Of a stretch of DNA of 64,000 bases, positions 22,709-43,700 are shown piece after piece (position 1 is the stretch's first letter; each line of letters starts with the position of its first letter). Origin of the DNA: Nitrosomonas sp. GTDB lineage: Bacteria > Pseudomonadota > Gammaproteobacteria > Burkholderiales > Nitrosomonadaceae. Position numbers and translations under genes: made by a program. The notes under the pieces were generated by a model, which saw only the letters and a program-made list of their open reading frames with translations, was not told the origin of the DNA and did not search any database. The DNA is taken from contig JAMXAG010000008.1 in assembly GCA_024281675.1 (NCBI GenBank), positions 17,737-81,736 on the forward strand. Reading direction: 5' to 3'.

Positions 22709-23116
22709 CTATGGCTTCGTTAATTGAATCAGCACAGTAGTATTTTTATAGGTACAAGCATAACGATGAATTTCCAAGCATTGTGATGTAATCGTAAGTT
22801 GATAGGTTCCTGGTGCCTCATGTTGCGTATCAAACTTGAATTCAAATTGACCCTGCGGATTACTTGGATAAGATTGATCCACGACGACATGACCGTCTGG
22901 ACGCAGCAATTTAAAACTCAACAGCACATCTGGCACGGGTTTTTCCTGGTACTCCACCCAGCCTTGCACAACAATGGTATCGCCAGCAGTATATTGGTTT
23001 TGTAAATTTTCGACGATCGGTTGAGAAATATGCGTTGCCCATCCCTGATTCGCAAATCCAAATAATAGGATCAGTAATATAAATCCAGCACAGTATGTAT
23101 TTTTCCAAAGCATCAT
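22709..23116 (-). CDS. Hypothetical secreted Ig-like protein
   Basis: Signal peptide; YTAGDTIVVQG...SNPQGQF...PGTYQLTI pattern. Confidence 0.55.
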   Translation of the reverse strand: MMLWKNTYCAGFILLILLFGFANQGWATHISQPIVENLQNQYTAGDTIVVQGWVEYQEKPVPDVLLSFKLLRPDGHVVVDQSYPSNPQGQFEFKFDTQHEAPGTYQLTITSQCLEIHRYACTYKNTTVLIQLTKP

Positions 23117-23177
23117 GATGATGGAGTAATAATTATTGAATAACTTGTGAGTATTTGAAGCATATGAGAGAACGGTA

Positions 23178-24965: not shown

Positions 24966-25073
24966 ATTTTGCGTCGTACTTACTATGTGTAACTCTATTA
25001 AATCTCAGCGGGTTGTACGCTTTGTGAATAAATTAGGATTTGCGGTAACCGACGTCGTTGCGGTTGTTATCAA

Positions 25074-26339: not shown

Positions 26340-26449
26340 ATATTGCGAATTAGTAACTGCTAGAATCGATTATTGATCAATATGATTATAGTACAAGATG
26401 TAGCCCCGCTTGGTTGGGGAGTTTTTTTATTTTAAATTGGAGAATCAAA

Positions 26450-26800
26450 ATGACAACCATACAGATATTTGACCCTGCTTCATGTTGTAGCTCAGGCGTT
26501 TGCGGTTCCGACGTAGACCAAGAATTGGTCGGTTTTTCCGCTGATGTCGACTGGGCCAAACAACAAGGTGCTGCCATTGAACGCTTTAATCTGGCGCAAC
26601 AGCCGATGGCTTTTGCGGATAATTCTATAGTAAAAGCATTCTTGGAACGCTCCGGTGCTGAAGCGCTACCATTGATTCTCGTAGATGGAGAAGTGGCATT
26701 AGCAGGCCGCTATCCAAATCGCGGTGAACTGGCGCGCTGGACTGGCGCTACTGTGGAAGAAGAAACCGAAGAATCCAGTTGCTGCGGCGGCTGTTGTTAA
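26450..26800 (+). CDS. arsD: Arsenite metallochaperone ArsD
   Basis: FDPASCCSSGVCG, RFNLAQQP, LPLILVDGE, C-terminal CCGGCC. Confidence 0.93.
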   Translation: MTTIQIFDPASCCSSGVCGSDVDQELVGFSADVDWAKQQGAAIERFNLAQQPMAFADNSIVKAFLERSGAEALPLILVDGEVALAGRYPNRGELARWTGATVEEETEESSCCGGCC

Positions 26801-26820
26801 CGAAAACCTGAGCCAACCAG

Positions 26821-28602
26821 ATGACGCAACTCAAATTCCTCGATCAACCGCCCCGATTTCTGTTCTTTACTGGCAAGGGCGGCGTCGGCAAAACGTCGTT
26901 GGCTTGCGCTACCGCGATAACGCTGGCCGATGCCGGTCAGCGGGTATTATTGGTCAGCACCGATCCGGCTTCCAACGTGGGTCAGGTGTTCGGCACGACG
27001 ATTGGCAATAAGATTACAGCAATTACTGCTGTGCCTCGCTTAGCCGCTCTGGAAATCGACCCGCAAGCAGCCGCGCAAGTCTATCGTGATCGCATTGTCA
27101 ATCCGGTGCGCGGTGTATTGCCGGACACGGTGGTCAAAGGTATCGAAGAGCAACTATCCGGCGCGTGCACGACCGAAATTGCCGCTTTCGATGAATTTAC
27201 CGCTTTGTTGGTCGATTCGGCGCTGACAGCGGATTACGATCATATTATTTTTGACACCGCCCCCACCGGCCACACCATACGATTGCTGCAACTGCCCGGC
27301 GCATGGAGTGATTTTCTTGCGGAAGGCAAAGGCGATGCGTTATGTCTTGGTCCATTGGCAGGATTAGAAAAACAACGCGCACAATACAAAGCGGCGGTAG
27401 ATGCGCTCGCCGATTCGCAACGCACCCGGCTAGTATTGGTGGCTCGTGCACAGCAAACCACGTTACGCGAAGTAGCGCGGACACACGAAGAATTAGCAGC
27501 CATTGGATTGACGAAGCAATTCCTGGTCATTAATGGATTGTTTCCACAGGCAGAAACAGTACAGGATCCATTGGCAACTGCAATCTTCCAACGTGAACAG
27601 AACACTTTGGCGGCTATACCGAAAGTTCTCAATCAATTACCACGTGATCATATAGAGCTTAAACCGTTTAACCTAGTCGGATTGACAGCCTTGCGAAAAC
27701 TATTGATTGATGATTTGCCTGTCGAAGGCGACAGAGAATGTACACATAAGGCAATACCATTTCCCAGCTTATCCAGTTTGACTGATGAGATTGCCAAAGA
27801 CGGATGCGGTTTAATCATGCTGATGGGCAAAGGCGGAGTTGGCAAAACCACCCTTGCTGCGGCTATCGCGGTCAATCTTGCACATCGGGGCTTGCCAGTA
27901 CACCTAACCACCTCAGACCCGGCAGCGCATTTGAGTGAAACACTCAGCGGCGCTATGGATAACCTGCTGGTTGATCGGATTGATCCGCACATGGAAACCG
28001 AACGCTATCGGCAGCGTGTTCTGGAAACCAAGGGTTCGCGTCTGGATGCACAAGGCAGAGCATTGCTGGAAGAAGACTTACGTTCGCCTTGCACCGAAGA
28101 AATTGCGGTATTTCAAGCATTCTCGCGCATTATCCGCGAAGCGGGAAAGCAATTCGTGGTGATAGATACCGCACCCACCGGGCATACACTATTGTTACTG
28201 GATGCCACCGGCGCCTATCATCGCGAAGTTGCCAAACAAATGGATAGTCATTCCATCGCGCACTACACCACGCCGATGATGCAACTTCAGAATCCCAAGC
28301 AGACCAAAATATTGCTTGTCACATTAGCGGAAACGACACCGGTACTGGAAGCTGCCAACCTGCAAGCCGATTTACGCCGTGCTGGTATTGAGCCGTGGGC
28401 GTGGATCATCAATAACAGCATAGCTGCAACTACTGTGAAATCACCTTTATTGTGTCAGCGTGCCAATAATGAGCTTACTGATATCGAAACCGTATCGACC
28501 ATGCACGCAAAACGCTATGCCGTCGTGCCTTTGCTCAAAGAGGAACCTATTGGTGTTCATCGGTTATTGGAATTAACACAAGGTAGCGCGACTGAACATT
28601 AA
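26821..28602 (+). CDS. arsA: Arsenite-stimulated ATPase ArsA
   Basis: Two GKGGVGKT motifs, two DTAPTGH motifs, metal-binding Cys in GACTTE, LCLGP and SPCTEE. Confidence 0.95.
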   Translation: MTQLKFLDQPPRFLFFTGKGGVGKTSLACATAITLADAGQRVLLVSTDPASNVGQVFGTTIGNKITAITAVPRLAALEIDPQAAAQVYRDRIVNPVRGVLPDTVVKGIEEQLSGACTTEIAAFDEFTALLVDSALTADYDHIIFDTAPTGHTIRLLQLPGAWSDFLAEGKGDALCLGPLAGLEKQRAQYKAAVDALADSQRTRLVLVARAQQTTLREVARTHEELAAIGLTKQFLVINGLFPQAETVQDPLATAIFQREQNTLAAIPKVLNQLPRDHIELKPFNLVGLTALRKLLIDDLPVEGDRECTHKAIPFPSLSSLTDEIAKDGCGLIMLMGKGGVGKTTLAAAIAVNLAHRGLPVHLTTSDPAAHLSETLSGAMDNLLVDRIDPHMETERYRQRVLETKGSRLDAQGRALLEEDLRSPCTEEIAVFQAFSRIIREAGKQFVVIDTAPTGHTLLLLDATGAYHREVAKQMDSHSIAHYTTPMMQLQNPKQTKILLVTLAETTPVLEAANLQADLRRAGIEPWAWIINNSIAATTVKSPLLCQRANNELTDIETVSTMHAKRYAVVPLLKEEPIGVHRLLELTQGSATEH

Positions 28603-28721
28603 TCACTTGATCGCTCCTGAGATACACACAATCTATAAATAGTGCACATTTGTACTTAATGTCACAAATTTTGCACAATCGAAGTAGAAGCGGTTCGGTT
28701 ATGTTTCTAGGTCATTGATAA

Positions 28722-28767
28722 TGGTGCTGTTGAGAGGAGTCGAACCTCCGACCTACTGATTACGAAT
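28722..28767 (-). other. att site 1: 3' half of tRNA-Thr(CGT) (anticodon loop to CCA), no 5' half
   Basis: Reverse complement ATTCGTAATCAGTAGGTCGGAGGTTCGACTCCTCTCAACAGCACCA has anticodon CGT, T-arm and CCA; lies 155 bp from an integrase. Confidence 0.85.
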
Positions 28768-28885
28768 TCTAAAATATACTGTTTTACGTTGTTTTAATAT
28801 TTTTGAATATCCATTCATATCATTGTTTTGTATTGATTTTTACTGTTAAGTTGTTTTAAACTCCACCCCATGGTTTTACGCCCAC

Positions 28886-28905
28886 TGTCTACATAGTGTC
28901 TACAT
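28886..28905 (+). repeat. Tandem TGTCTACAT direct repeats (putative integrase arm-binding sites)
   Basis: tgtctacat-ag-tgtctacat just upstream of int; degenerate copy at 41868-41887. Confidence 0.5.
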
Positions 28906-28922
28906 GAAAGGAGATTAAAACA

Positions 28923-30185
28923 ATGACTACACCCCAAACGCCTCCGCAAAAAATCACAAAATCCTATGTAGACAAATTGTCTACACCAGAAACCGGACAA
29001 GCCTTTATCCGTGATACCGAACTCAAAGGTTTCGCCGTGCGTATTACTTCATCCGGCGCAAAATCATTTATTCTCGAAAAGAGAATTGATGGCAAAGTGA
29101 AGCGATTAACGTTAGGCCGGTATCCTGAGCTAACTGTCGAACAAGCCAGAAAGGAAGCGCATAAATTACTTGGTCACATCGCTGTTGGCCGCAATCCCGC
29201 TGCCGAGAAAAAGCAGGAAGCGCTACAAGGCACCACATTAAAACAAGCCTTCGATGATTTCGTAAAGACGCGAAAAAATCTCAAGGAACGAACGCTCTAC
29301 GATTACCGGCGAGTAATGGCCGTCGTTTTTGCCGACTGGCAGGATAAAACGATAACCGGTATCAATAAGGACATGGTCAGCAAGCGCCATAACAAAATTG
29401 GGGCGGAAAGAGGGGAAGCCTATGCCAACCTGGCTATGCGCTTTTTACGTGCGCTGTTTAATTTTGCCATTGCACAATATGAGGATGGCAATGGACATTC
29501 AATATTACGGGAGAATCCCGTTATGCGTCTGACGCAAACCCGCGCATGGTATCGGGTAGATCGTCGCCAAACCGCTATCAAACCTCATCAACTTTCTCCT
29601 TGGTATGAAGCCGTGATGTCGCTTAAGCAAGATCAAATATCTAACCAATCTGCAATGGTAGCCGATTATCTTTTATTTCTTTTATTTACAGGTCTAAGAC
29701 GACAAGAAGCGGCAACGCTAAAATGGTCGAATATAGATTTGGATGATCGCTCTTTCACATTGACCGATACCAAGAATCGGGAACCTTTGACATTGCCGCT
29801 AACTGATTTTGTCTTCGATCTACTGCAAAGCAGAAAAGCCGTGACCGATTCTGAATATGTTTTTGCTGGGGATGGTAAAAAGGGATACTTGATTGAACCT
29901 CGCCGCCAAGTGCAAAAGGTCATTCAATTATCCGAAGTATCGTTCACACTACACGATCTACGCCGCACTTTTATCACGATTGCCGAAAGTATCGATATAT
30001 CCGCTTATGCACTTAAACGGCTGGTAAATCATAAAATGACCAACGATGTCACTGCTGGCTATATTATCAGCGATGTCGAACGCTTGCGAAAACCCATGCA
30101 ACAAATATCCTCCCAATTGCTTCGATATTTCAAAATCAAAGATGACAAGAAGATATTGCCATTTCAAAAGCACCAAAGCGCTTGA
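28923..30185 (+). CDS. Tyrosine recombinase/integrase with N-terminal arm-binding domain
   Basis: RDTELKGFAVR...RLTLGRYP arm domain; TGLRRQEA, LHDLRRTF, LVNHK...TAGY catalytic residues. Confidence 0.95.
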   Translation: MTTPQTPPQKITKSYVDKLSTPETGQAFIRDTELKGFAVRITSSGAKSFILEKRIDGKVKRLTLGRYPELTVEQARKEAHKLLGHIAVGRNPAAEKKQEALQGTTLKQAFDDFVKTRKNLKERTLYDYRRVMAVVFADWQDKTITGINKDMVSKRHNKIGAERGEAYANLAMRFLRALFNFAIAQYEDGNGHSILRENPVMRLTQTRAWYRVDRRQTAIKPHQLSPWYEAVMSLKQDQISNQSAMVADYLLFLLFTGLRRQEAATLKWSNIDLDDRSFTLTDTKNREPLTLPLTDFVFDLLQSRKAVTDSEYVFAGDGKKGYLIEPRRQVQKVIQLSEVSFTLHDLRRTFITIAESIDISAYALKRLVNHKMTNDVTAGYIISDVERLRKPMQQISSQLLRYFKIKDDKKILPFQKHQSA

Positions 30186-30209
30186 ATATAACATTTTATA
30201 ACTTATAAT

Positions 30210-30476
30210 ATGCACAATCCGTACAATTTATTGATCCGGCCGCAAGCCAAAAAGAAATTGCAAAGCCTGCCGAGAACGGATCGATTCAGGATTGCCGAAA
30301 AACTGGAACAGCTAGGTCGTAATCCTGATGACAGCTCACTGGATATCAAGAAATTGGAAGGTGAACCTTATTTTCGGTTAAGAGTTGGTAATTGGCGCAT
30401 TATTTTTGAACGGCACGATGCCGTTAGGATCATTGCCATTGAGAAAATTAAACCGCGTGGAGATGCATACAAATGA
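30210..30476 (+). CDS. RelE/ParE-family toxin
   Basis: AKKKLQSLP...IKKLEGEPYFRLRVGNWRIIF; 4-bp overlap with the antitoxin gene. Confidence 0.88.
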   Translation: MHNPYNLLIRPQAKKKLQSLPRTDRFRIAEKLEQLGRNPDDSSLDIKKLEGEPYFRLRVGNWRIIFERHDAVRIIAIEKIKPRGDAYK

Positions 30477-30805
30477 CACTGCAAAAAATAAAATCCATTC
30501 AAGGCAAAGACGAATATGTCCTGTTACCGATGGCGGTTTACCGTGCCTTGAAAGATCAGATCGAAAAGGAATTGGCAGCTTGCGAAGCAAATCAGAATGA
30601 CGAACAAACCTATGAACCGTTTGTGCTTGAGGACTATGTTGATAATCCCGTGGCGCTTGCGCGAATCAAAGCCGGTATTACACAAGAGCAATTAGCTCAG
30701 CGCCTAGGCGTCAGTCAAGCTTATGTTAGCCAAATTGAACGCCGCGACACCGTAACTAATAAGATGCTTGAACAAGTGCATTCGGCTATTCAGAGTAGTG
30801 ACTAA
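30473..30805 (+). CDS. XRE/HTH antitoxin
   Basis: ARIKAGITQEQLAQRLGVSQAYVSQIER. Confidence 0.88.
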   Translation: MTLQKIKSIQGKDEYVLLPMAVYRALKDQIEKELAACEANQNDEQTYEPFVLEDYVDNPVALARIKAGITQEQLAQRLGVSQAYVSQIERRDTVTNKMLEQVHSAIQSSD

Positions 30806-30854
30806 TACTCATCTTATTTTGTTCAATTTTCTTTGCCACCGCGAAGCGGGCTTG

Positions 30855-31029
30855 CCCTTGACAGGCTGCCACCGCTCAAGAAAATAACCAGGCAGGAAGG
30901 ATTGAAGCGCAATTACTTCTACGCACAAACTGACCACGCAAAACCGCAGTGACCTTGTTCCCCACCCGGCCACAAAACCTCAATCTTTCATACTAAACCA
31001 CACTTCGAGCGGCGGCAGCCTGTCAAGGG
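30855..31029. repeat. 23-bp inverted repeat pair enclosing 129 bp
   Basis: cccttgacaggctgccaccgctc (30855-30877) vs gagcggcggcagcctgtcaaggg (31007-31029), 22/23 complementary. Confidence 0.8.
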
Positions 31030-31125
31030 TGGCAAGTCAATCCGGCAAATCAAATACGAATTTTCTAAAGTGTTCAGATTATTGAACCGTCATTTGGCAT
31101 TATCTATCACTACGGAAAACTCACT

Positions 31126-31791
31126 ATGCATGTAGAAAATAGCCCTGACTTCAAAACTGTCTGGCAATTAGCGCATAACTGGATAGGCGCTGACCTGGAC
31201 AAGACCAATTTAAGCGCAATCTCACCTGAATTAAAAACAGCTATTCATCGCTTGATGCAGGCAATGTCAAGCATGGAAATTACCGGCAGATGGAAAGGGT
31301 TGCGAATCTTTATGGATAATTCCTTTCTCTCTTCACTTTTTGATCTTTATCACACCTTTAAATTTTATCAATGCTTCAGAAAAAACAAATTCGATAAAGA
31401 CTATCTAGATAACCTTTACATAAAGCGTAATGAAGTTTTAAGATGGTGCGAAAATATCATTTATTTAGATCCTCCACCCTGCTGGGCATTAAAAATAATA
31501 TCGTCTAAAAATGACATATCTGCTGAAGTTGAAGATACTGATGATGAGAACAATAGCTGGTACGATAAAATAACGAAGCGACGCAGACAAAGAATAGTCT
31601 GTATCGAATTAGCAAAGCAGCTCTGGGAGCAATATCCGGGCATAAGTTACGAAGAAATGCATAAGCATCCCACTATGCAACAATTGGGCTATTCATCTAC
31701 TTTTACCTTCAAATCTTTTAAGAATTTGGTTCGATTCGTTGCATCGGAACCCGCCCAGCTACCTGGAGCACCTGCAAAAACAAAGGAATAG
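31126..31791 (+). CDS. Hypothetical protein upstream of the excisionase
   Basis: 221-aa AT-rich ORF; no family recognised. Confidence 0.6.
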   Translation: MHVENSPDFKTVWQLAHNWIGADLDKTNLSAISPELKTAIHRLMQAMSSMEITGRWKGLRIFMDNSFLSSLFDLYHTFKFYQCFRKNKFDKDYLDNLYIKRNEVLRWCENIIYLDPPPCWALKIISSKNDISAEVEDTDDENNSWYDKITKRRRQRIVCIELAKQLWEQYPGISYEEMHKHPTMQQLGYSSTFTFKSFKNLVRFVASEPAQLPGAPAKTKE

Positions 31792-31904
31792 AAAATCATA
31801 ATTATTCCTAAAAAAATAAATATATTTCTATTTTTCTAGCATCTTTTTTTACACCATCATTTAATGCAAATTGATCTCGTATTCACTAACTTACGAGGTC
31901 AATC

Positions 31905-32099
31905 ATGCAAAACCCTTTACTCACGACTAAACAAGCCGCACAAATCTTAGGCGTCAGCACCGCATTCCTGGAGCGAGACCGCTGGGCTGGAGCGCGGGTG
32001 CCTTTCGTCAAAATAGGCTCACGGGCAGTTCGCTATCGCCATAGCGATCTGCTCGCCTATATTGAATCCTGTCTCTGTCAATCCACCAGTCAGTACTGA
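31905..32099 (+). CDS. AlpA/excisionase-like HTH protein
   Basis: [14 protein letters not shown]...[22 protein letters not shown]; 64 aa. Confidence 0.85.
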
Positions 32100-32107
32100 G
32101 GTGTATC

Positions 32108-33784
32108 ATGCATACGTCAGTACGTGATAGCCAAGAGCTACTTACTCCCAGCGAACAGATTGCAGAAAGTGTTTTAAGTTTACTGGATGAACCGAATAAC
32201 AGCGACAAGCGATGGCGTGCGCCCATATTCCAGAGACTCCCCAAACGCTTTGCTGAAAACGCTGCCTACGACTATAAAGAAACCTACATCTTTGAAGGCA
32301 GGCGCCATGCCAATCTCTTTCTACTCCAAACCTATGGGAAATCCAACAAACACAGCATTCCGCTCAATGCTAACGATGATGACCTGAAAGCGATATCTAA
32401 GCGTATCGTGACAGAAATCAAGGATTTTAGTAATTTCCTGCTCAATCGAACCGACAAAATAGCCAGCCTGCTGCACTATGCGCAAAAATATGACGTGAAT
32501 CTACCTTCTTTTGATAATCCAAATATCACAGAGAAAGGTATTTATACCCGCTTAACCGATGAAAACTGGTGGCTGCGCAGACTACGTAAAACCCATGCCA
32601 GGAATCTGGAACAAGAAGCGATTCGAACCGGTTTCGTGCATCAGCGTAAAGGCAAGTACGTCAGCGATGAAACCCTGCAACGGCGTAGAGAACAGAAAAA
32701 ACGCAACCAGCGCATCCTTGAAGGATTGCTGATGATCAATGAGCTGGATGAAGGCTTCACACTCAGCGAACTGGCAGAACATAGCTTAGCTAATCCGCAT
32801 GTACGACGCAGTGAATTGATGGTACGCCTATTCGGATTTGAATTCATTGCCAACGAATTGGGACATGTTGGCGAATTCTATACCATCACTTGTCCATCCA
32901 AAATGCATGCCCGGCATTCCGGCAGCGGTGAACGTAATTCTAAATATGACGGCACCACACCGGAACAGGCGCAAAAGTATCTCAATACGGTCTGGGCAAG
33001 AATTCGCGCAAAACTGAAGCGGGATCATCTAGAAATTTATGGTTTCCGAATTGCCGAACCACAACATGATGGTACACCGCACTGGCACATATTGTTATTC
33101 ATGCCACCCGAACAAACTGCAAAGGTTCAGGCTATCATTCGGCATTACGCCCTGCAAACCGATGGCGATGAACCGGGCGCAAATGAACACCGTTTCAACA
33201 CAACCCCCATTGATAAAAGCAAAGGTACCGCCGTCAGTTATGTCGCGAAATACATTTCAAAAAACATCGACGGCCACGGCCTTGAACAGGATATTGACGG
33301 CAGCCCGATACAAGAAGCGGCTGAACGGGTGGAAGCCTGGGCTTCAACTTGGAGCATTCGACAATTCCAACAAATTGGCGGCGCACCTGTCAGCATTTGG
33401 CGGGAACTCAGAAGAATCCACGATGCACCTGAAGGCATCCTTGAACAAGCACGAAAAGCAGCCGACCAGAAAGAATGGTGGAAATTCATTCAGTTGATGG
33501 GCGGTATAACTTCTAAACGAAAAGACAATCCCATCAAGTTACTGAAAATAGAATCTAAAGAGCTAGGAAAGTATGGCGATCCGATAGGACAAAAAATCTG
33601 TGGCGTAAAAACTGATTCCATCCAGCTACCAACCCGTTTGCATCAATGGCGTATTGAAAAATGTGCAGTGAACACAGAACAGACTGAACGGCGAAGCGCA
33701 AAGCGCCCGAGTAGGAGCGGCAGCGACCGCGAGGTCGCATTTGCGGCGCAGCCGCCTTGGAGTTCTGTCAATAACTGTACGTAA
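32108..33784 (+). CDS. Rolling-circle replication endonuclease (phage P2 gpA-like, HUH)
   Basis: [27 protein letters not shown] (HUH), [12 protein letters not shown] (YxxxY), [18 protein letters not shown]; ends PWSSVNNCT. Confidence 0.92.
33723..33778 (+). other. Putative rolling-circle origin/nick site within the rep 3' end
   Basis: Two GC hairpins (gcgacc-gcga-ggtcgc; gcggc-gca-gccgc) followed by CCTTGGAGTTCTGTCAATAACTG, resembling the P2-family ori as recalled. Confidence 0.6.
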
Positions 33785-34247
33785 GATAATAGTTTCGTCA
33801 ATCCATGATCAAATATGTACTATTTTTAATCTAATTGTATAGAGTCTCTGAAATAGTGAGTGTTACTGAGTTTGATATGGATGTTGAATCCTTAAATCAA
33901 ACTTAATAATAAGTGGTACCAATGTCATGTACTAACAACCTAATTATCAAACACAAAGAAGGGTAACTCAATTTTTCCCAAGAATTTGAAAATTTCTATA
34001 AATTCTGAAAGATTATGGGAGTATCCAGAAATATATTTTATTGAATTGAAGTGACAAACAATTTGGAAGCACTGATCAATCAGAATCGCCGTGTTCTAAT
34101 GTTAAGAACTTTGTTGATGAAACGATAGAACAAACCGTTTGAGTTATGCGATTAAATATCCGATGTATAGTCAATATCGAACCAGTAATGAATTACGCTA
34201 GTAAGCGATTAGATTAGTTTACGTGATTTACATTCTGAGGATATGAT

Positions 34248-34345
34248 TAAAAAAGAAACGGGAACCGAAGTTCCCATTTCATATCGGTGGGCTTTTAAGC
34301 CCTTGTTGCCGACAGTTCCCCACCATCGGAATAACTGATACAGTT
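34248..34345 (-). ncRNA. tracrRNA
   Basis: Anti-repeat 34305-34340, nexus hairpin gggct-taaa-agccc, UUCG-capped gggaac/gttccc hairpin and U-tract on the minus strand. Confidence 0.88.
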
Positions 34346-34348
34346 TAA

Positions 34349-34377
34349 ATTCTATCAAACAAAGCAAAAAGGGACAA
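34349..34377 (-). promoter_or_regulatory. Sigma70-like promoter for tracrRNA
   Basis: Minus strand TTGTCC-17 nt-TAGAAT (with extended TG), overlapping the cas9 5' leader. Confidence 0.55.
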
Positions 34378-36804
34378 GCGGATATGGTTCTGAAATATAG
34401 GCTTGGCTTAGACGTAGGCACTGCATCAGTTGGTGCTGCGGCGGTATCTCTAGATAAAGATGGGCAACCGGATACACTGATCTGGCATCACGTGCGAATT
34501 TTCAATGAACCGTTAGAGAATGCACAAGGCACACTGGTTTCGAAGAAATCTGGACGGCGAAAAGCGCGGATGCAGCGTCGCCAGATTGACCGCCGTGCTT
34601 CACGCTTGCGGCGCATTGCAAATCTCGCCAGTTTGCTCGGACTAAAACGCGAAGAAATCGCACCCGATAATGGCAGCACTCTACCCTATCTGCGCGCTCA
34701 AGCTGCAACCGAGCACGTCGAGCTTGATGATTTATTGCGCATCTTCCTACGGCTATCCAAACGACGCGGGTACAAGGGTGAATTCAAAGCCAAGAAAAAA
34801 GGCGAGGTCGCAGAAGGTTCCAGCGAACTCAGCCTTGCCATGAGAACCCTTGCTACAGAATGCGCCATTTTGTTCAAGGATGAAAACGATACTGGCATCA
34901 CCATTGGGCAATATTTGCTGCATCGCATGGAAAGTGGCTTACCAACCAAGCTCAAAGTAAAAGAAATCAGCGATGAACCTAAGAATAAAAAAAATGAGGG
35001 CGCGAACACACCAAAGAATTTATACGCACTTCGCAAAATGATCGAGTATGAATTCAACACCATCTGGGATACGCAAGCCAAACATCATGACATCCTCAAC
35101 GGAACTCACGAAGACAAGCCGATACGCGAACACTTCCATGAAGCGCTGTTCTACCAGCGCCCGCTAAAATCGGCTACCGACTTGGTTGCGCGATGCGAGC
35201 TTGAACCAACGCTATCACGTGCACCACGTGCGCAAATGGCCTTTCAACGCTTTCGCATTGAAAAGACGCTGGCAGATTTACGTTGGGGCGCTGGTAAACG
35301 CGCCGAACCAATCACATCGCATCAAAAGCAAGTCATCAGAAACTTGCTTGACCACAATGACAAAGTGAAATTCGATGACATCTATGAAGCGCTAGAAAAT
35401 GCAGATTGTGTAAAACCACAAGGCAAAGGACTAAACCTTGACCGTGCCAGTCGCGAAGAGCTGCTTGGGAACAGTACGCTGGCAGCACTACGCAAACTGG
35501 ATAAACATAGTACAAAAAATCATCCAGAACGCGCTGCCAATCTTGAACAAGCCTTCTGTGCTCTGGATGAAAAAACACAAATCGCTGTCATCAATTTTCT
35601 GGCAGAACTCGGCTCACCTGAACAGCTAGATGATCCAGAGTGGCATACCAGCTTCGTCAAGCGCGATGGCAAGCCGCGCCAATTCAGCGAGCCTTTGATC
35701 GTCTTCATCAACTGTATTAAGGAACACGATAATTTCGACCGGTTAAGCAAAATGGATTTCGATGGTGGGCGAGCTTCTTATTCCGTCAAAGCCTTAAACA
35801 ATCTTGCTGACTGGCTAGAAGAGCCAAACTGGCCGGGCGATTGGCAAGACGATATGAAACGCATGGATGAAGAAGCTGCCATTCGCGTGTGTTACCCGAA
35901 ATCGCTTAACTGCGAAATCAAACGCATGGAGAAACTGCCCGTACCTGAATCTACCGGTAATGCTGTGGTGGATGGTTCGCTTCGTCAGATCCGCTGGACA
36001 GTGAACAAGATGATTGATGAACTTGGCGCTCCACCTAATGAGATCGTGGTGGAAATGGCACGCGAGATGAGCTTAGGCATCAGCCGCCGCAATGAGCGCG
36101 AAAGTGATAACAGCGCACAACAACGTGCGCGCAAACATGCTGAAAGTGTAATCCGAAATTCCGGTGGAGTACCAACACCATCCAAGATTCGTCGTTATCT
36201 TTTGCTACAAGAACAGGATACTCATTGCCCTTATTGCGAAAACAAAATTGGGTTGCCGGATGCTCTATCTGGCGCAACGGAATATGAACACATTATTCCG
36301 AAATCGCTTACGCAAGTTGGCATGAAGCGTTCTGAAATTGTGTTGGCGCATCACGCCTGCAATCAGGAGAAAGATGATCGCACGCCATGGGAAGCATGGG
36401 GGAACAGCCCGCGTTGGGTGCATATTGAGAAGGCAGCAGAGCGCTTTGAGAAGAAAAAACAATTTCGCAAAGCCAAGCTGCTACGCCTTAAAGACTTTGA
36501 GCGTGAAGTATTGACCGATGAATCTGTGAGTGGTTTTGCAGACCGTCAGTTTCATCAAACCTCATGGATAGCAAAAGAAGCTGCACAATGGCTGGAATGC
36601 CTATGCCCTCATAAAGTTTCTGTTTCGCGTGGTGAACTAACATCCATGCTACGCCGCAGTTGGAAACTGGAAACCGTAATCCCAGAGGTTCGCATCGAAA
36701 ACAGCCTGCCCCTGCTGGATACCGAAGGAAAGCTGATTGAGCAAAATGATTTTGACAGACTCAAGAAATACTGAGGTATGTTGTCAAAAATGGAGTCCAT
36801 AGGT

Positions 36805-37710
36805 TTAAGCAGCGAGTAGATTTGCATAGTACTGCTGCGAAAATTGTGCAGGCGATAAATAACCTAATTTTTCTTGCTTGCGCTGTCGGTTATAGAATAT
36901 TTCGATATATTCGGTAATCTCCTGAATGGCTTGTTGCCGTGTTTTGAATCTCCGATGATGCACCAGTTCGGTTTTAAGTATCCCCCAGAAGCTTTCCATC
37001 GGCGCATTATCATAGCAGTCGCCCTTGCGGCTCATGGAGGCGATCATGCCAAATTGTTGCAATAAATTCCGGTAATCGTGTGCACAGTATTGACTACCTT
37101 GATCTGAATGAGCAATGAGCCCCTTATCCGGATGTTTATTTGCAGTTGCGCGAAATAATGCCTGTATAACCAGGCTCTTTGTCATTTTCTCATTCATGGC
37201 ATAGCCCACCAGTTCGCCATTAAATAGATCTTTTATTCCAGCCAAGTACAACCAGCCCTCATCTGTAGGAATATAAGTGATGTCACTGACCCACACTTTA
37301 CCAGGTGCATTAACAGAAAATTCCCGTTTCAGAATATTGGGCGCAACCGGTAAATTATGTTTAGAATCGGTCGTCACCTTGAATTTTAGCTTTTGCTTAC
37401 AACGCAAACCCAATTTCCTGCGCAATGTTCGAACACGGTATGGTGTGGCTTGTACTCCGTGATCCGCCAAATCATGATGCAAGCGCTTTGCACTGTAGGT
37501 CTCTCGTGTACGTTGGTGTGCGGCCAGTATTTCTATTTCCAGCCTTCTATTCTCCCGCTTACGTTTACAAAGCGGGCGCGTTCTTTGAGCATGAAAGCCG
37601 CTCTCGGAAACATTCAATACTCGACACATGAGCCCAATCGAATAGCTTCGTCGCATCGATTCAATCAAACCGTATCTCACCGCGACTCCTTGGCGAAATA
37701 CGTCGCACAC
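36805..37710 (-). CDS. IS3 transposase OrfB (DDE integrase core)
   Basis: WVSDITYI, HSDQGSQY, SRKGDCYDNAPMESFW, YIEIFYNRQR. Confidence 0.93.
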   Translation of the reverse strand: MCDVFRQGVAVRYGLIESMRRSYSIGLMCRVLNVSESGFHAQRTRPLCKRKRENRRLEIEILAAHQRTRETYSAKRLHHDLADHGVQATPYRVRTLRRKLGLRCKQKLKFKVTTDSKHNLPVAPNILKREFSVNAPGKVWVSDITYIPTDEGWLYLAGIKDLFNGELVGYAMNEKMTKSLVIQALFRATANKHPDKGLIAHSDQGSQYCAHDYRNLLQQFGMIASMSRKGDCYDNAPMESFWGILKTELVHHRRFKTRQQAIQEITEYIEIFYNRQRKQEKLGYLSPAQFSQQYYANLLAA

Positions 37711-37976
37711 TTTTTTATAAAATCACGCTCCATCTTCACTTCTGCTAATTCACGTTTAACTCTGGATAGCTCTAACTCAAGTTCAGTCAGCGGCTTATGA
37801 TGCTTGCCTACTGTAATGAGTTCTCCTCGTTTGTCAGCATAAACCCAATTCTTTAGTGTCCCCTGGGGTAACGACAGCCGTTTTGCTGCTTCAACCAGAG
37901 TCAATCCGCTTTCTTTGAAAAATTTAACTGATTCCTTCCGAAATTCCTGACTATATTGTGTGCGGGGTAATTCCAT
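37677..37976 (-). CDS. IS3 transposase OrfA (HTH)
   Basis: YSQEFRKESVK...AAKRLSLPQGTLKNW...LKRELAEVKMERDFIKK; -1 overlap with OrfB. Confidence 0.9.
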   Translation of the reverse strand: MELPRTQYSQEFRKESVKFFKESGLTLVEAAKRLSLPQGTLKNWVYADKRGELITVGKHHKPLTELELELSRVKRELAEVKMERDFIKKCATYFAKESR

Positions 37977-39063
37977 TTTCATCCTCCATTTCATGTCTTC
38001 ATTTTATGAAACTTCGGACTCCTTGAAAATCAGCATACCTCATACCTTGAAGGACATCCGGTCAGGAGTGAAGACCGCAAAGCAAACCCCGACTTCGATT
38101 TCAACCGTCGCCCAGACAAACGTCTCGATCATCGCCATCACCTGATTGATGCGATTACACTGGCATTGACCTCGCGCAGTTTGTTTCAGCAAATGGCGAA
38201 GAAATACAAAACTGCCGCCGAAAAGATGCAAACGTGTGAGGGAGAAACACAGGAAGAACGCGAACGCCGCATCAAGAATGAAACACGGCTGCGACTTGAA
38301 GTGCCTGAACCGCCTTTTCGCAATGTGCGTGCTGCTGCACTTGATGCCATGCGCGAGTGCAATATTTCTATAAAACCGGATCGCTACCCTGATGGTGCAC
38401 TGTTCAAGGATACAGCCTACGGAATAGCGCAGCGAGATGGTGAAGACAGGTTACGACTTACTCTACGCCAGCCCGTCGCTGGATTGGGCAAGGTTCAAGG
38501 AAAAACAAATTTAGAGGCCGCGCGTAAAGCCATTGCAAAAATCATCAGCAATGACGTGCAGTGTATTGTTACCGACACATTTGAGGATCGCATTGCTAGG
38601 GGCATGGAAGCTGGAGATGCACTTGCTTTGCCTATCCGGCATCCGCTCTATGATAAACCAATTCGCAAAGTGCGTTGCTTTGAAACCTATGCAGAAGATG
38701 CACAACCCATTGGCTTCAACAGCCGCCGCGGTGAGCACCGCAAATATCTTATCAATGCAGGGTATGCCTATTTGGAGCTTTACACCGACAGATCAAGAGA
38801 ACCCCGACTTGTGAAAATCCGTGATGCGATGCGAAAAAAAGGAACGCCTACTCCCCAAAATGCAAAGTGGATTTACAAAGGAGATGTTGTAAAGGATTCT
38901 AAAGATAATAAACTCTATCGAGTGGGCTACTTCAAGTCTGAAGGAGTTATTGCTCTCATTCCAATTTTCGACCCACGCTCATTCGACAAAATTTCAGAAA
39001 GTAATGCTGGAAAGAAAAAAATTGCGTTTACTCAAGCTGCAAAACGTTTAACACTGATTAACG

Positions 39064-40011
39064 ATGTCTGAACAGCGCATCCTCGTCATCGAAAATCCCG
39101 CCCACCTGCGCATAGACACGGGGCGGTTGAAAATTGAGCGTGACGGTTTTGACCATGTATTTGTCTCGCCTGATGATGTGGCAGTACTTTGCCTCGAACA
39201 CCACACAGTCACACTCTCAGTCGCCGTCTTGCGTGCACTTGCCGAAGCCGGAGCAGCAGTGATGGTCACCGATACGCGACACATGCCTTGCGCCATGCAG
39301 ATTCCGCTCGCCGCCACAGGCTTGGATGCGGGTAGGCTGCGTCAGCAAATTGCACTGGATACCAGCGAGAAACGTGGCGAGTTATGGCAACAATTGATCT
39401 CCACAAAGTTATCTATGCAGGCTCACGCCTTGCGCGGGCTGCAACGTAAGGGAGCATTGCGCCTGGAGCGTCTCGCAGCACAAGTGCAACATAACGACAA
39501 AAGCAACGCGGAAGGTCAAGGTGCAAAACACTATTGGAATAACCTGTTCCCAGAGACTTTTAAGCGCAGCAAGGAAGGTGCAGAAGACCCACTGAACGTT
39601 CGCCTCAACTATGGCTATGCTGTGCTGCGCGCCATGATTGCCCGCTCGTTGGTTTCAGCCGGACTCAATGGCACATTGGGCTTGGGACATCGCAATGCGG
39701 GCAATGCATTCAACTTGGCGGACGACTTCATTGAGCCGTATCGCTTTCTGGTGGATGTGCATCTGGCTGATGATGCCGATACCTGGAGTGAAGCGCCAGA
39801 ATTTGACAGCCGCGCCAAGCGCTATTTGCTTGGATTCGTCAAACGTCCTGTGCGCATGGCGGGGCAGGATATGCGGCTGCACGCCGCAATTGATACGAGT
39901 ATCGTCAGCTTCGTGCGTATTCTTGAAGGCAAAGGCAAAAAGCTGGTGCTTCCCGAAGGACTGGTTATTGATAGGGATAATAAGGAATGGCAATCAACGG
40001 ATGGCGCGTAA
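39064..40011 (+). CDS. cas1: Type II CRISPR-associated endonuclease Cas1
   Basis: EGQGAKHYW, NVRLNYGYAVLRA, LGLGHRN, NLADDFIEPYR; overlaps the cas9 stop. Confidence 0.95.
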   Translation: MSEQRILVIENPAHLRIDTGRLKIERDGFDHVFVSPDDVAVLCLEHHTVTLSVAVLRALAEAGAAVMVTDTRHMPCAMQIPLAATGLDAGRLRQQIALDTSEKRGELWQQLISTKLSMQAHALRGLQRKGALRLERLAAQVQHNDKSNAEGQGAKHYWNNLFPETFKRSKEGAEDPLNVRLNYGYAVLRAMIARSLVSAGLNGTLGLGHRNAGNAFNLADDFIEPYRFLVDVHLADDADTWSEAPEFDSRAKRYLLGFVKRPVRMAGQDMRLHAAIDTSIVSFVRILEGKGKKLVLPEGLVIDRDNKEWQSTDGA

Positions 40012-40319
40012 TGTGGGTGATTGCAGTTTATGATTGCCCGATGATAGAACGTGAGGAACGGCGCGATTACACGCTGTTCCGCAAAAGCCTGTTGCAAGAA
40101 AATTTCTTCCAGTTGCAAAACTCGCTCTATGTGCGCCACTTCCCTACCATGGCGGTTGCCGAAGCCACGATACAGCGCATCCGTTTAGGCATCCCAGCAG
40201 GTGCACAAGTGGCATTTTTCCTCGTAACTGATAAACAGTACGCGATGACTAGAGAGTTTTTTGGTAATCGACCCACAAAGAAAAAGCCCAATTTGCCAGA
40301 GCAAATCGAGCTTTTTTAA
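39987..40319 (+). CDS. cas2: CRISPR-associated Cas2
   Basis: MWVIAVYDCP...FRKSLLQENFFQLQNSLYVR...VTDKQY; no csn2 or cas4 follows, so type II-C. Confidence 0.93.
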   Translation: MAINGWRVMWVIAVYDCPMIEREERRDYTLFRKSLLQENFFQLQNSLYVRHFPTMAVAEATIQRIRLGIPAGAQVAFFLVTDKQYAMTREFFGNRPTKKKPNLPEQIELF

Positions 40320-40358
40320 AATTATTTAATTTTAAAAACAACTGACTATATACAATCT

Positions 40359-41516
40359 AGTTTATCAGGTATTCCGATGGTGGGGTGTCGGAACTCGTTG
40401 AGTATTATGAAGCCACACATTGGTAGTTTATCAGGTATTCCGATGGTGGGGTGTCGGAACAAATAATCCTGCCTATATGAAAAATGTTTAAGTTTATCAG
40501 GTATTCCGATGGTGGGGTGTCGGAACGAAAAAATGCGCCGATATCACCAACTCTAAAGTTTATCAGGTATTCCGATGGTGGGGTGTCGGAACAATAGCCG
40601 ATAAGGTAATACCGGCTATTGAAGTTTATCAGGTATTCCGATGGTGGGGTGTCGGAACATGAATCGAGAGATGAAGCGGTATGCTGGAAGTTTATCAGGT
40701 ATTCCGATGGTGGGGTGTCGGAACCTGTCTTTCGCTGTTATTTCAATCCGTGTTAGTTTATCAGGTATTCCGATGGTGGGGTGTCGGAACGAATAACAAT
40801 TGGTATGTCTGCACCCTCAGAGTTTATCAGGTATTCCGATGGTGGGGTGTCGGAACGCGAGCGTGATGTTAGCTACGGCATCGCCGAGTTTATCAGGTAT
40901 TCCGATGGTGGGGTGTCGGAACATTTAAACCCCCATGAGTCTGAGTGAAAATAGTTTATCAGGTATTCCGATGGTGGGGTGTCGGAACCTGTAACCCTAG
41001 ATGGTAAAAGTGTATCTTAGTTTATCAGGTATTCCGATGGTGGGGTGTCGGAACGTAGAGGGTGAGGTAGAACTACAGGAAAATAGTTTATCAGGTATTC
41101 CGATGGTGGGGTGTCGGAACTACCTTCGCAAGCATCCTTTTTGTTCTCATAGTTTATCAGGTATTCCGATGGTGGGGTGTCGGAACCACTAACTGTAGCT
41201 GACTCAGGCGACGTGTAGTTTATCAGGTATTCCGATGGTGGGGTGTCGGAACACACATTATTGGCTACTCTTAAACTTGAAGAGTTTATCAGGTATTCCG
41301 ATGGTGGGGTGTCGGAACATAGTTTCGTGCGTTTCAACCGCTTGAATCAGTTTATCAGGTATTCCGATGGTGGGGTGTCGGAACACCAAGCTATGACTGG
41401 TCATGCCCGGTGAGAGTTTATCAGGTATTCCGATGGTGGGGTGTCGGAACCATCGCTAGCCGTTAAATCCTCCTCCTCGAAGTTTATCAGGTATTCCGAT
41501 GGTGGGGTGTCGGAAC
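40359..41516 (-). CRISPR. CRISPR array: 18 identical 36-bp repeats, 17 spacers of 30 bp
   Basis: Plus-strand repeat agtttatcaggtattccgatggtggggtgtcggaac with an exact 66-bp period. Predicted sense strand is minus (GTTCCGAC...TGATAAACT), from tracrRNA pairing and the embedded extended -10. Confidence 0.99.
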
Positions 41517-41756
41517 AATACCGTCGATGGAATAAATAGCCGTTCGCAGCGCTCGGAATTAATAGTGAGAGATTTCTAGAGGTTCCAGATTTTATCGGAA
41601 AGATGAAGTACCAAATAAAGAAAGCGCAAATTAGTACCAAATAGGGCGATTTGTTATAGAGATTACTTATCTTTTTCGTATGTTCAGTCTATTATCTACA
41701 TTATGCCTACATCTAAATGTTATAAGATTATTATCTTATGCAACCTATAGATTCTA

Positions 41757-41802
41757 TGGTGCTGTTGGGCAGAATCGAACTGCTGACCTACAGATTATGA
41801 AT
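41757..41802 (-). other. att site 2: degenerate tRNA 3' fragment related to att1
   Basis: Reverse complement ATTCATAATCTGTAGGTCAGCAGTTCGATTCTGCCCAACAGCACCA; followed by a copy of the TGTCTACAT arm repeat at 41868. Confidence 0.75.
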
Positions 41803-41931
41803 TTGACTGACTTAATAGTCAATTTCTAAACCCCAGATTTGTTTATCCGTATTTTATTTTGATCTGCTGTCTACATTGCGTCTGCATGAATAATTATTAT
41901 TTGTCAATCAATGCATAACTTATTGTTTTTA

Positions 41932-41977
41932 TGGTGCCGACACCAAGAATCGAACTCGGGACCTTCTGATTACAAAA
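41932..41977 (-). other. att site 3: 3' half of a tRNA-Thr(TGT)-like gene
   Basis: Reverse complement TTTTGTAATCAGAAGGTCCCGAGTTCGATTCTTGGTGTCGGCACCA; intact T-arm and CCA; no 5' half. Confidence 0.75.
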
Positions 41978-42004
41978 CTTATTTACAAATTACAATTACT
42001 TATA

Positions 42005-42017
42005 AATCAATAACTTA
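42005..42017 (+). promoter_or_regulatory. IHF-consensus site beside att3
   Basis: AATCAA-TAAC-TTA matches WATCAANNNNTTR. Confidence 0.5.
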
Positions 42018-42175
42018 CAATGCTTGCCAAGCATAAAAACTGTCTCACACAACCACAAACGGTGACACTTGCAGAGTAGTTTGGCACAAATTTGACACAG
42101 TCAATTCCGTATCTTATTTCGTTCTCGCATAACGATGTTCCTTTGATAACTGCCATTAACACAAAATACCTAAGA

Positions 42176-42595
42176 TTATTCTTCCCAAGGATTGATGACG
42201 AGCACTCCGGCAGCGATAAAAGGTGCAGTATCTCGCGTCGCTATGGTGAATCTATGTATGACCGCGATTGCGGCAATCTGACCGTCTGCCACAGAGATGA
42301 GGCGACCGTTAGTCCTAGCTCGACCGACTACGGAGGCATATGCTATCGCAGCCTGTTGGTCGAATGATAGTATGCGCGACCCAAAAAGCCTCTCCATCAG
42401 TTTCCTCAATGCGATATCAAGTCCTTCTTTACGCTTGCCATCTGGCAGGATTTCAATGCCGACCAGCAATTCGGAAAGGCTTGTTGCTGTCAGATACAGT
42501 GTCTCTGCCGTCTGCCGATCAAGCCAAGCTTGAACAGCGGGATTGCCATTGAGTTTCATTGGCTCGGATATGACATTCGTATCCAGAACGATCAT
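42176..42595 (-). CDS. vapC: VapC/FitB PIN-domain toxin
   Basis: MIVLDTNVISE, ELLVG, ADGQIAAIA, TRDTAPF. Confidence 0.93.
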   Translation of the reverse strand: MIVLDTNVISEPMKLNGNPAVQAWLDRQTAETLYLTATSLSELLVGIEILPDGKRKEGLDIALRKLMERLFGSRILSFDQQAAIAYASVVGRARTNGRLISVADGQIAAIAVIHRFTIATRDTAPFIAAGVLVINPWEE

Positions 42596-42831
42596 TCGAA
42601 CACTGCCGGATCAGTCGGCGTCTGATCACGAATGTCATTAAAATCAAGCCCTCCAAAGGACTGCCCAAAAGCAGCGAGTTCTGATCCGATTTTGACACGC
42701 ATCCTAGGACGCACTGCCTCTTCCAGAATTTCCCGGATTTCAGCTTCGGTGCTACGTCCATGTTGAGCAGCACGCAGCTTAAGCGCGCGATGCGTTTCTT
42801 CGGGCAAATTGCGAACAGTAACAACAGACAT
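42592..42831 (-). CDS. FitA-like ribbon-helix-helix antitoxin
   Basis: VTVRNLPEETHRALKLRAAQHGRSTEAEIREIL; 4-bp overlap with vapC. Confidence 0.9.
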   Translation of the reverse strand: MSVVTVRNLPEETHRALKLRAAQHGRSTEAEIREILEEAVRPRMRVKIGSELAAFGQSFGGLDFNDIRDQTPTDPAVFE

Positions 42832-43667
42832 CTGACTTCACTCCTTATTATATGAAATCAATGATAGCATATATTAAAAAATGACATCAATTTTGTGTAC
42901 TCATACGATATTGAGAGAATTAATAATCAATACATTGCCAAAACAATTCAGTATCGCAGGTTAGATAAACAATAAAGCATTACTTTCATTAATCTTTCCA
43001 ATCTTTACAGGTCGACTACAATCTTCACAATATTTTCTTCCACTTCCAATCGCCCTCTTTACAACCCTAAGATTTCTTACATATCAATTGATTATATTTT
43101 TGTGATGCAAATAGGCGGTTATCGCGGCTTTAGTAACAATTCCCTCAGAATTTCACAGTACTTAAGCGAAACTGTTAAGGGTTTTCGCTAGTTTCATTTA
43201 TCCAATATACTATACTGAGTAGATTTTAGTTAATTTTCTATACCGCCTATTAAAGTATCTCTGAAAGGATACTTTTCTTCATTCTTTGGAATGATACTAA
43301 CAACGCCAGCTGTTTAAAACAGTTGTTGTATTTTATATACTCTCATCCGTATGATCGAATCTTGAATACTCAATCAATAGTTTTCTTCAGACAAACAAGA
43401 TGATACAAACTATAGTACCGAGGATACATTTCATGTGTTTATGTACTTGTGGTTTCCATATTACGGATTTCGAATAAGTATTATCACAGTGCTTGTTAAC
43501 GTAAAACAAATTGCTCGACTTATGTAACTGTGTTGAATTTGCATGCAGCAATAACAAGCGCATTTACAGTGGTACCATAAAAACACGTATACTCCCCCGC
43601 AACAGTGAACATTATGTGTACCAGCGTTTTTACCCAACAGAATGTTCAGTCTGGCATGCTAGTGCCT

Positions 43668-43700
43668 ATCACAATCACAATCACAATCACAATCACAATC
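43668..43700 (+). repeat. (ATCACA)5.5 microsatellite
   Basis: Direct reading of the sequence, 75 bp upstream of the MscK start. Confidence 0.9.

Follow-up and report, generated by a model that had tools for sequence, protein, structure and literature searches.

How does a type II-C CRISPR-Cas9 locus come to lie beside an integrase, an AlpA-type regulator and a rolling-circle replication gene in the chromosome of an ammonia oxidiser? The question is posed by positions 28722-41802 of a 64,000-nucleotide stretch of Nitrosomonas DNA (contig JAMXAG010000008.1, positions 17,737 to 81,736), which was analysed as a whole and is called the window below. The answer that we reach, and that we consider likely, is that this segment is a complete copy from a family of small tRNA-integrating elements that is widespread and apparently undescribed, and that the Cas9 locus is the cargo of this copy. 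No description of such a family, defined by an integrase (int), alpA and a replication gene (rep) of the phage P2 gpA type, was found in open-access papers and bioRxiv preprints.

The domain and gene identities of the window's open reading frames (ORFs) were assigned with Pfam and PHROG profiles. Together with repeat and attachment-site (att) searches, these profiles recover every part named in a preliminary description of the locus, at the positions given there. The gene order is int, a toxin-antitoxin (TA) pair, an inverted-repeat pair, an ORF of 221 aa, alpA, rep, a trans-activating CRISPR RNA (tracrRNA), cas9-cas1-cas2 and the CRISPR array (Table 1). The whole measures 13,081 bp, or 11,807 bp without an insertion sequence (IS) of the IS3 family, in agreement with the ~13.0 kb and ~11.8 kb first estimated. 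Capsid, terminase, portal, tail, relaxase and type IV secretion system (T4SS) genes had no Pfam or PHROG match among the tested ORFs of 28722-41802, and the earlier claim that capsid, terminase, relaxase and T4SS genes are missing holds within that scope. The flanking DNA, with leuS, holA, glk, a chemoreceptor gene and arsDA, is chromosomal, and a megablast of 24000-46000 against PLSDB gave no plasmid match except to the IS3. A plasmid origin was rejected on these grounds.

The left end of the element can be compared directly with an empty site. A JGI metagenome contig, L204, matches window 16821-28767 at 99.99% identity; past the match come an intact tRNA-Thr(cgt) and then aroQ-accB-accC-prmA. 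The two sequences part exactly after ...GATTACGAAT (28767), in the anticodon loop, and L204 has nothing between arsA, which in the window ends at 28602 to the left of the attL core, and the tRNA. Because L204 has the intact tRNA and diverges exactly at this point, the left att is a real integration junction, and integration was into tRNA-Thr(CGT). The existence of so similar a strain with an empty site further means that all DNA to the right of 28767 came by insertion or rearrangement.

A survey of 80 genome loci fetched around Rep homologues places the element in a family. The order Int-(TA)-Hyp-AlpA-Rep, where Hyp is the 221-aa protein, recurs in at least 26 of the 80, and the backbone occurs in Nitrosomonas, Nitrosospira, Methylobacillus, Methylotenera, Thiodiazotropha and several gammaproteobacterial metagenome-assembled genomes (MAGs). 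Twenty loci have direct-repeat ends of 42-74 nt (at least 92% identity in 17 of them); the elements so delimited span 6.5-12.8 kb, with 12 of the 20 falling within 9.1-11.2 kb. The direct repeats that were examined are tRNA 3′ halves, and an arm repeat of 19-22 nt lies directly upstream of int, with a second copy ~45 nt ahead of the right repeat. A scan for tRNAs covered seven loci, delimited in full or in part (L008, L026, L027, L032, L036, L038 and L042), and in all seven the right repeat belongs to an intact tRNA, of the Thr(cgt), Thr(tgt) or Lys(ttt) type. The integrase is thus at the end distal to the intact tRNA, and the window copy is arranged alike. The empty site of L204, the int-alpA-gpA gene set and the family boundaries bear out the preliminary reading of an integrative element that brings a rolling-circle replicon of its own.

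The stretch from rep to the right att in the delimited elements contains 1.6-6.2 kb of unrelated genes, whose identities we took from PADLOC, Pfam and precomputed gene calls. They include CBASS parts (cyclase, E1-E2, HORMA, Cap17, patatin and TIR), defence matches to PD-Lambda-2, PDC-S21, Kiwa KwaB and MADS, and matches to methyltransferases, HerA, DUF4917, Beta_protein, ThsB-TIR (TIR/Thoeris-like), Nmad2 and MazG_C. This tabulation of the cargo of Rep and Int homologues, which the preliminary description had proposed as a check, shows a variable slot after rep that is filled mainly with defence systems. One of 21 delimited elements carries genes for thymidine hypermodification (aGPT-Pplase3, an amino acid:DNA transferase, a thymidylate synthase-like protein and a carbamoyltransferase); such genes are found mainly in phage genomes.

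A whole type II-C locus occupies the slot in three elements: the window copy, L016 and L038. In L038, a Nitrosomonas MAG, Rep is followed by a tracrRNA, cas9, cas1, cas2, a 15-repeat array, arm repeats, an intact tRNA-Thr(cgt) and aroQ-accBC; its Cas9 belongs to a different lineage (26-29% identity to the window's), and its aroQ-accBC flank is 77% identical to that of L204. L038 is a clean single insertion enclosing a whole II-C locus. L016 has Int (74%), another TA pair, Hyp, AlpA, Rep (73%), a tracrRNA and cas9 (80%), with an att of the Thr(TGT) type, and contig L001 joins int to the far side of the array. These three arrangements uphold the earlier proposal that the Cas9 locus is cargo inside the element.

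The cas locus also has a life of its own. In more than 20 loci, homology to it sets in abruptly at 34249, where the tracrRNA has its 3′ end, and Rep-less copies of the cassette lie in an arn operon, in an McrBC island and next to a molybdopterin oxidoreductase gene; an 88%-identical relative of the window's Cas9 likewise has no Rep. Since near Cas9 relatives occur elsewhere without Rep, the tracr-cas9-cas1-cas2-array cassette is an exchangeable cargo. A count that speaks against an obligate tie comes from 30 checked loci with a window-clade cas9, only one of which, L016, has an A-type Rep. The sequence comparisons indicate that the family captured a cas cassette on at least two separate occasions, and the link between element and Cas9 is cargo capture, not an obligate association. 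Such capture would explain the related Cas9 cassettes in unrelated contexts in Nitrosomonadales. With its cassette the window element (11.8 kb, IS3 excluded) is close to the top of the family size range. Window-clade cassettes were also seen beside an unrelated integrase in L200 (8560-9726) and, in L010 (7118-9734), beside an AlpA gene and two unknown ORFs of 457 and 301 aa.

In its gene content the window locus is assigned to type II-C: the ORFs in 34384-40319 are cas9, the IS3, cas1 and cas2 only, with no csn2 and no cas4, and a tracrRNA and an array accompany them. The preliminary description had spoken of a whole Cas9 locus; all parts are indeed present, with the amendment that cas9 is split by the IS3 and has no intact frame. 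The rejoined halves of cas9 are 100% identical to the 1137-aa Cas9 of contig L001, which was found in 11 samples. Samples that contain the element include ERR15976518, SRR19554484 and SRR35247017. The IS3, whose plasmid matches in PLSDB carry IS3 transposase annotation, is absent from L001, L003 and L004 (cas9 intact, 1137 aa), and L002 and L005 stop at its left junction. The insertion is a recent one in this genome, and it has broken cas9 and left Cas9 inactivated here. The anti-repeat (34318-34345) pairs with all 18 CRISPR repeats, which are identical to one another across 35 matched nt. Because the full repeat pairs with the anti-repeat in the minus orientation only (read by eye), CRISPR RNA (crRNA) and tracrRNA are both placed on the minus strand, opposite cas9, which counts as a correction to the preliminary description.

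Table 1. Positions in the window of the parts of the element, and of the remnant that adjoins its right end
Feature	Position	Strand	Basis or remark
attL core: 3′ 46 nt of tRNA-Thr(CGT), up to the anticodon loop	28722-28767	-	identical to the intact tRNA of L204
Arm-type integrase-binding repeats, 2 x TGTCTACAT, P′ arm, 5′ of int	28885-28908 (copies at 28886, 28897)	+	sequence repeats
Tyrosine integrase, P4-type, with N-terminal arm-binding domain	28923-30185	+	Arm-DNA-bind_3 3e-18, Phage_integrase 2e-14, phrog_1
Type II TA pair: ParE/RelE toxin (30210-30476), HTH_3 antitoxin (30473-30805)	30210-30805	+	Pfam, PHROG
23-bp inverted-repeat pair, 129 nt apart	30855-30877, 31007-31029		intergenic, upstream of hyp-alpA-rep
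221-aa backbone protein	31126-31791	+	no Pfam or PHROG match
AlpA/HTH_17 excisionase-regulator	31905-32099	+	Pfam HTH_17 3e-10, phrog_66
HUH rolling-circle Rep, P2 gpA family, 558 aa	32108-33784	+	Pfam Phage_GPA 3e-87; phrog_91 'nicking at origin' 1e-169
Candidate ori (gpA nick region), CCTTGGAGTTCTGTCAATAACTG	33750-33772	+	23 nt in the last codons of rep
tracrRNA: anti-repeat, two hairpins, U-run terminator	34345-34246 (approx.)	-	anti-repeat pairing, fold z = -3.6
cas9 (type II-C), interrupted; pieces 34384-36771 and 38046-39071	34384-39071	+	Pfam Cas9_a, HNH_4, RuvC_III
IS3-family IS, 1271 bp, ends TGAGGTATG...CATACCTCA, target-site duplication TAC	36772-38042	-	orfA 37677-37994, orfB 36805-37710
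cas1 (39064-40011), cas2 (39987-40319)	39064-40319	+	Pfam Cas_Cas1 1e-26, CRISPR_Cas2 7e-11
CRISPR array: 18 repeats of 36 nt, 17 spacers of 30 nt	40359-41516	-	repeat GTTCCGACACCCCACC...
Arm-type repeats TATCTACAT, TGCCTACAT, P arm, 42 nt before the right core	41692-41715 (41693, 41704)	+	sequence repeats
attR core: tRNA-Thr-like 3′ half, GACCTAC in common with attL	41757-41802	-	37/46 identical to attL
Outside the element: 175-bp remnant of another family member	41803-41977		arm repeat 41867-41890, tRNA-Thr(TGT)-type core 41932-41977

What would the element do with its own genes? The reading frames of int, alpA and rep are intact in the window copy. Rep has the HUH motif PHWHILLF and the two-tyrosine motif YVAKYISK; it has more than 6000 homologues, the near ones in Nitrosomonas, whose genomes can hold more than one copy, and no sequence relative with a solved structure was found. 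Within the last codons of rep lies a 23-nt motif that shows at most one difference in 17 aligned family members, the Rep genes of which are just 65-85% identical. With 0-2 mismatches it closes most of ~165 fetched gpA genes, in phage and non-phage contexts, and it is present even in IMG/VR contigs whose Rep proteins are 34-45% identical. Third-codon conservation reaches 0.90 in the last 30 codons of rep as against 0.66-0.69 in the body of the gene. We read the motif as a candidate gpA nick region, or ori; the ori of P2 is itself located inside gene A. As a 23-nt sequence at the end of gpA genes, CCTYGGAGTTCTGTCAATAACTG behaves as a near-universal family ori, and its presence in both the elements and P2-type phages suggests that each could act on the other's replication origin. 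Backbone homology ends within 10 nt of the Rep stop codon (33783-33794). The 455 nt that follow (33795-34248) have no notable ORF and no homologue in any fetched locus; the corresponding gap in L016 is ~85 nt.

From these parts a life cycle can be proposed. Int and AlpA would excise the element through a crossover in the GACCTAC common to both cores, Rep would nick the ori and copy the circle by rolling circle, the TA pair would stabilise the element, and Cas9 would protect the host and hence the element. The gene set gives a firm footing to the predicted excision and rolling-circle replication. Weakest of all the steps is transfer from cell to cell. We suggest, tentatively and with rather less than even confidence, that the element may hitch-hike in helper-phage particles, as PICMI, VEIME and P4 do, and a helper-dependent satellite seems to us a reasonable hypothesis.

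Comparison with known systems supplies the points in favour. PICMI of the Vibrionaceae (PMC10803314) are likewise small, combine int and alpA with one replication gene and a variable, host-protecting cargo, have no capsid-remodelling or packaging genes and replicate in a rolling-circle-like manner. They differ in that their replication gene is a primase and their site is next to fis, whereas the present family has a gpA HUH Rep with a P2 ori and uses tRNA-Thr or tRNA-Lys; the combination of int, alpA and a primase-type gene that marks PICI and PICMI is accordingly absent, the replication gene being an HUH Rep. Packaging of concatemers in helper virions was shown for PICMI and is hypothetical for the present family. 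P4-like satellites (PMC9122126, PMC13586616) share with the element a P4-type integrase, an AlpA-family regulator, a size of ~10-12 kb and a hotspot beside the replication gene; unlike P4, the element has no alpha primase-helicase, psu, delta or sid by Pfam and PHROG, and no cos was found. P2 shares the family of Rep and ori, and it has a defence hotspot between gpA and gpQ (PMC9122126), to which the cargo slot downstream of rep is homologous in position; the Peduoviridae late operon (portal, terminase, capsid, tail) has no counterpart among the tested ORFs. The hotspots of P2 and P4 were reported without large systems such as CRISPR-Cas (PMC9122126), whereas here a 6.7-kb Cas9 locus fills the slot. 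A helper phage is therefore suggested by the PICMI/P4-like layout, the P2-type Rep and ori, the P2-hotspot position of the cargo and a size ceiling of ~12.8 kb.

Several results weigh against this proposal. When right ends were compared with nine Nitrosomonas loci having distant Reps (38-40%), nothing significant emerged as a cos or pac site, in a comparison for which no P2-type prophage of the host was at hand; what the family's right-end regions share is confined to the P arm, their last 70-180 nt. Pfam and PHROG gave no packaging or capsid-remodelling gene in the tested ORFs of the element. The 80 best IMG/VR Rep matches included no family member, all being at most 45% identical. L087, the one of the nine that was examined, proved to be another small Rep-Int element, not a P2 prophage, and no helper candidate emerged. 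No circular form or attP junction was seen: the element-length contigs L032 and L080, considered as circles, are integrated copies, and Logan contig ends inside repeated att cores, considered as a sign of excision, were read as assembly-graph branching at repeats. Spacer targets were sought in the window, in ~100 related loci and in INPHARED without a match, and five spacers, used as 24-nt seeds, had no exact counterpart in IMG/VR. The L087 element (9920-13634, ~4 kb) comprises a Rep of the gpA type (38-40% identical), an ORF of 140 aa and an integrase that carries Arm-DNA-bind_2, with no phage genes nearby; Reps similar to its own also occur in L081, L083-L088, L093, L095 and L100.

Transfer could also proceed by conjugation. 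Some integrative elements, ICESt3 and Tn916 with their MobT among them, use HUH Rep-like proteins as relaxases, and the HUH Rep may have such a role here, doubling as the relaxase of an integrative mobilizable element that hijacks a conjugative T4SS from elsewhere. The lack of a packaging signal and of any virion-related gene, and the absence of the family from the IMG/VR Rep matches, would fit this explanation as well. We nevertheless consider it unlikely. No relaxase, coupling protein, T4SS or oriT was recognised by Pfam and PHROG in the tested ORFs; Rep and its ori are of the P2-phage type, with the motif also present in IMG/VR gpA contigs, most of them 20-47 kb long; the AlpA-int-rep layout and the position of the cargo mirror phage satellites and the P2 hotspot; and the upper limit of ~12.8 kb recalls the ~12 kb capacity limit of P4-remodelled capsids (PMC9122126). 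A complete type II-C CRISPR-Cas system as integrative-element cargo is described for an integrative and conjugative element of Campylobacter (PMC8743540); that element is reported to be ~70 kb or larger, as against ~12 kb and no recognised transfer genes here. Vibrio genomic islands (PMC6360697) likewise hold complete CRISPR-Cas systems as cargo of an integrative mobile element.

The arm repeats of the right end have the same position as those of L038 (7327-7350, before the intact tRNA) and of the delimited family members, and the attR core is 91% identical to the tRNA-Thr(CGT) 3′ half of L008. Several features are harder to reconcile with a complete element. The two cores differ at 9 of 46 positions, with no blast-level direct repeat around the window copy; the right end adjoins remnants of other elements and not native flank; the tRNA 5′ half and aroQ(-accBC) occur nowhere in the window; and the right boundary is drawn from the family architecture, in which arm sites lie ~40 nt before the core. 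The empty-site comparison proposed at the outset gave an exact left junction; the right-hand native junction was not found, a look-up of the mscK-like protein yielding one short contig only. The second att of the preliminary description stands as a tRNA-like core, which is 80% identical to the first rather than a copy of it and is not a junction with native DNA.

A tandem arrangement would account for much of this. The tRNA-Thr(cgt) site of L008 is occupied by a tandem of three elements from two families, with cores that vary in the T-arm and share GACCTACTGATTACGAA. In a crossover at GACCTAC, the left core would retain the T-arm of the target and the right core that of the element itself, and the attR bases to the right of the crossover would derive from the next element; on this model, the position of the crossover explains the mismatches between attL and attR. 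The second core is thus better explained as a hybrid, its left part from this element's attP and its right part from the next element. An origin as a tRNA-Met fragment (CAT anticodon) was dropped, since a hybrid core fits better. The remnant of 175 bp that adjoins it is laid out as 61 nt, an arm repeat, 41 nt and a core, and has 87-98% identity with right ends or att sites in L042, L032, L025 and L016. A vapBC block comes next, which also follows a related element in L007 (93% identity). It follows that the element either heads a decayed tandem array or belongs to a rearranged island. The shared unit of arm repeat, Thr(TGT)-type core and vapC-vapB block (window 41803-42891, L007 14845-15875; 93% identical) lies immediately to the right of the element in both cases, and the two Rep elements beside it are 82% identical. 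Tandem arrays whose older copies are displaced inward by newcomers, with partial tRNAs and decayed remnants left behind, are also a feature of the tycheposons of Prochlorococcus (bioRxiv 10.1101/2020.12.28.424599), with which the family shares an integrase, a tRNA target, a small replication module and cargo; the layout here, with an integrase that faces inward from one end, a replication module, cargo and tRNAs, full or partial, in tandem, resembles theirs. Tycheposons have an integrase lineage of their own; they differ in primase/helicase-type replication genes and in often nutrient-related cargo.

The mismatched cores could be taken instead to mean that two neighbours met by chance, a ~5-kb int-TA-alpA-rep element (28722 to ~33800) having landed beside a pre-existing CRISPR-Cas locus of the chromosome or of an island. 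The cas cassette is, after all, a discrete unit in many Rep-less contexts, and 455 nt without a homologue separate it from Rep. There is, however, no att core between Rep and the array, and the arm sites and core come after the array, as they do in delimited family members; the II-C locus of L038 is enclosed between Rep on one side and arm sites, intact tRNA and native flank on the other; L016 repeats the order Rep-tracr-cas9; and the empty-site strain has nothing between arsA and the tRNA, so that the cas locus came with the insertion. Together these make a chance meeting very improbable, and we retain the reading of the locus as cargo of an integrated element. Least probable of all is an immobile, degenerate P2-like prophage that lost its late genes and received the cas locus later: the gene set does equal the P2 early region (int, regulator, A with ori, then hotspot), and the window copy does have mismatched att cores, an IS-broken cas9 and decayed neighbouring elements, but 20 copies of similar size occur in several genera with direct-repeat ends, most of them near-perfect, a late operon has no room in 6.5-12.8 kb (structural genes were not screened gene by gene), int, alpA and rep are intact here, and the empty site in a 99.99%-identical strain means recent gain or loss.

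The integrase has an HDLR motif, and further copies of the arm-type repeat lie at 28966(-) and 28978. Homologous TA pairs occur in L022, L027, L040 and L044, and other TA types take their place in L007 and L016. The 23-bp inverted repeat, for which shuffled sequence gave 0 such matches, is kept in L036 and in one arm of L016 and is presumed to be a regulatory site. All source-named homologues of the 221-aa protein (66 homologues in total) are from Nitrosomonas or an unclassified MAG; its AlphaFold2 (AF2) model has a pLDDT of 78, and it had no relative among PDB sequences and no Foldseek match of the model in PDB or BFVD. No relative of this protein is known from beyond these elements; a copy with 90% identity is encoded by N. 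ureae strains. AlpA keeps 84-98% protein identity across the family, and synonymous-site conservation of 0.82 in alpA, against 0.66 in rep, might reflect a cis-acting element that overlaps the gene, or else recent homogenisation.

Other cargo and neighbours were seen in the course of the survey. In L008 (2627-6774; also in L009), a LysR gene, RuBisCO large and small subunits and a CbbX-like AAA protein lie between int and TA of an element with att cores at ~1214-1259 and 13246-13290, adjoined by an IS3 remnant; it seems that a 12-kb integrative element has a carbon-fixation operon as its cargo. The second family at this tRNA-Thr(cgt), in tandem with the Rep-bearing one (13290-19870 and 165-1178), has a 337-aa integrase abutting the tRNA and cargo that includes a 604-aa reverse transcriptase. 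In the window, a perfect (ATCACA)x5.5 hexanucleotide repeat lies at 43668-43700, directly 5′ of the mscK-like gene; Logan contig L206 begins near it, which may reflect an assembly break there. Rfam gave no match at gathering score, and a tRNA-Ile called by ARAGORN at 57966-58040 is probably a false positive, as it lies inside a 551-aa FAD-oxidase ORF and has no Rfam tRNA.

Small integrative elements with defence hotspots (P4, PICI, PICMI, tycheposons) and CRISPR-Cas on large mobile elements were already known. The present case adds a ~12-kb replicon with more than half its length given to a complete Cas9 system, a state reached at least two independent times in the family, and thus a concrete, testable route for the horizontal spread of type II-C systems. 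The analysis also defines a compact family, with a P2-type Rep and ori and clean att sites, in nitrifiers, hosts of environmental importance with phages and mobile elements about which little is known. A wider and more doubtful possibility is that int-alpA-gpA elements are an undescribed, widespread class of P2-derived minimal phage satellites, which would have an ori in common with their helpers, travel in helper capsids with a ceiling of ~12-13 kb and repeatedly capture complete Cas9 systems. If true, satellites would be carriers of adaptive immunity from strain to strain in ammonia oxidisers and in other Proteobacteria.

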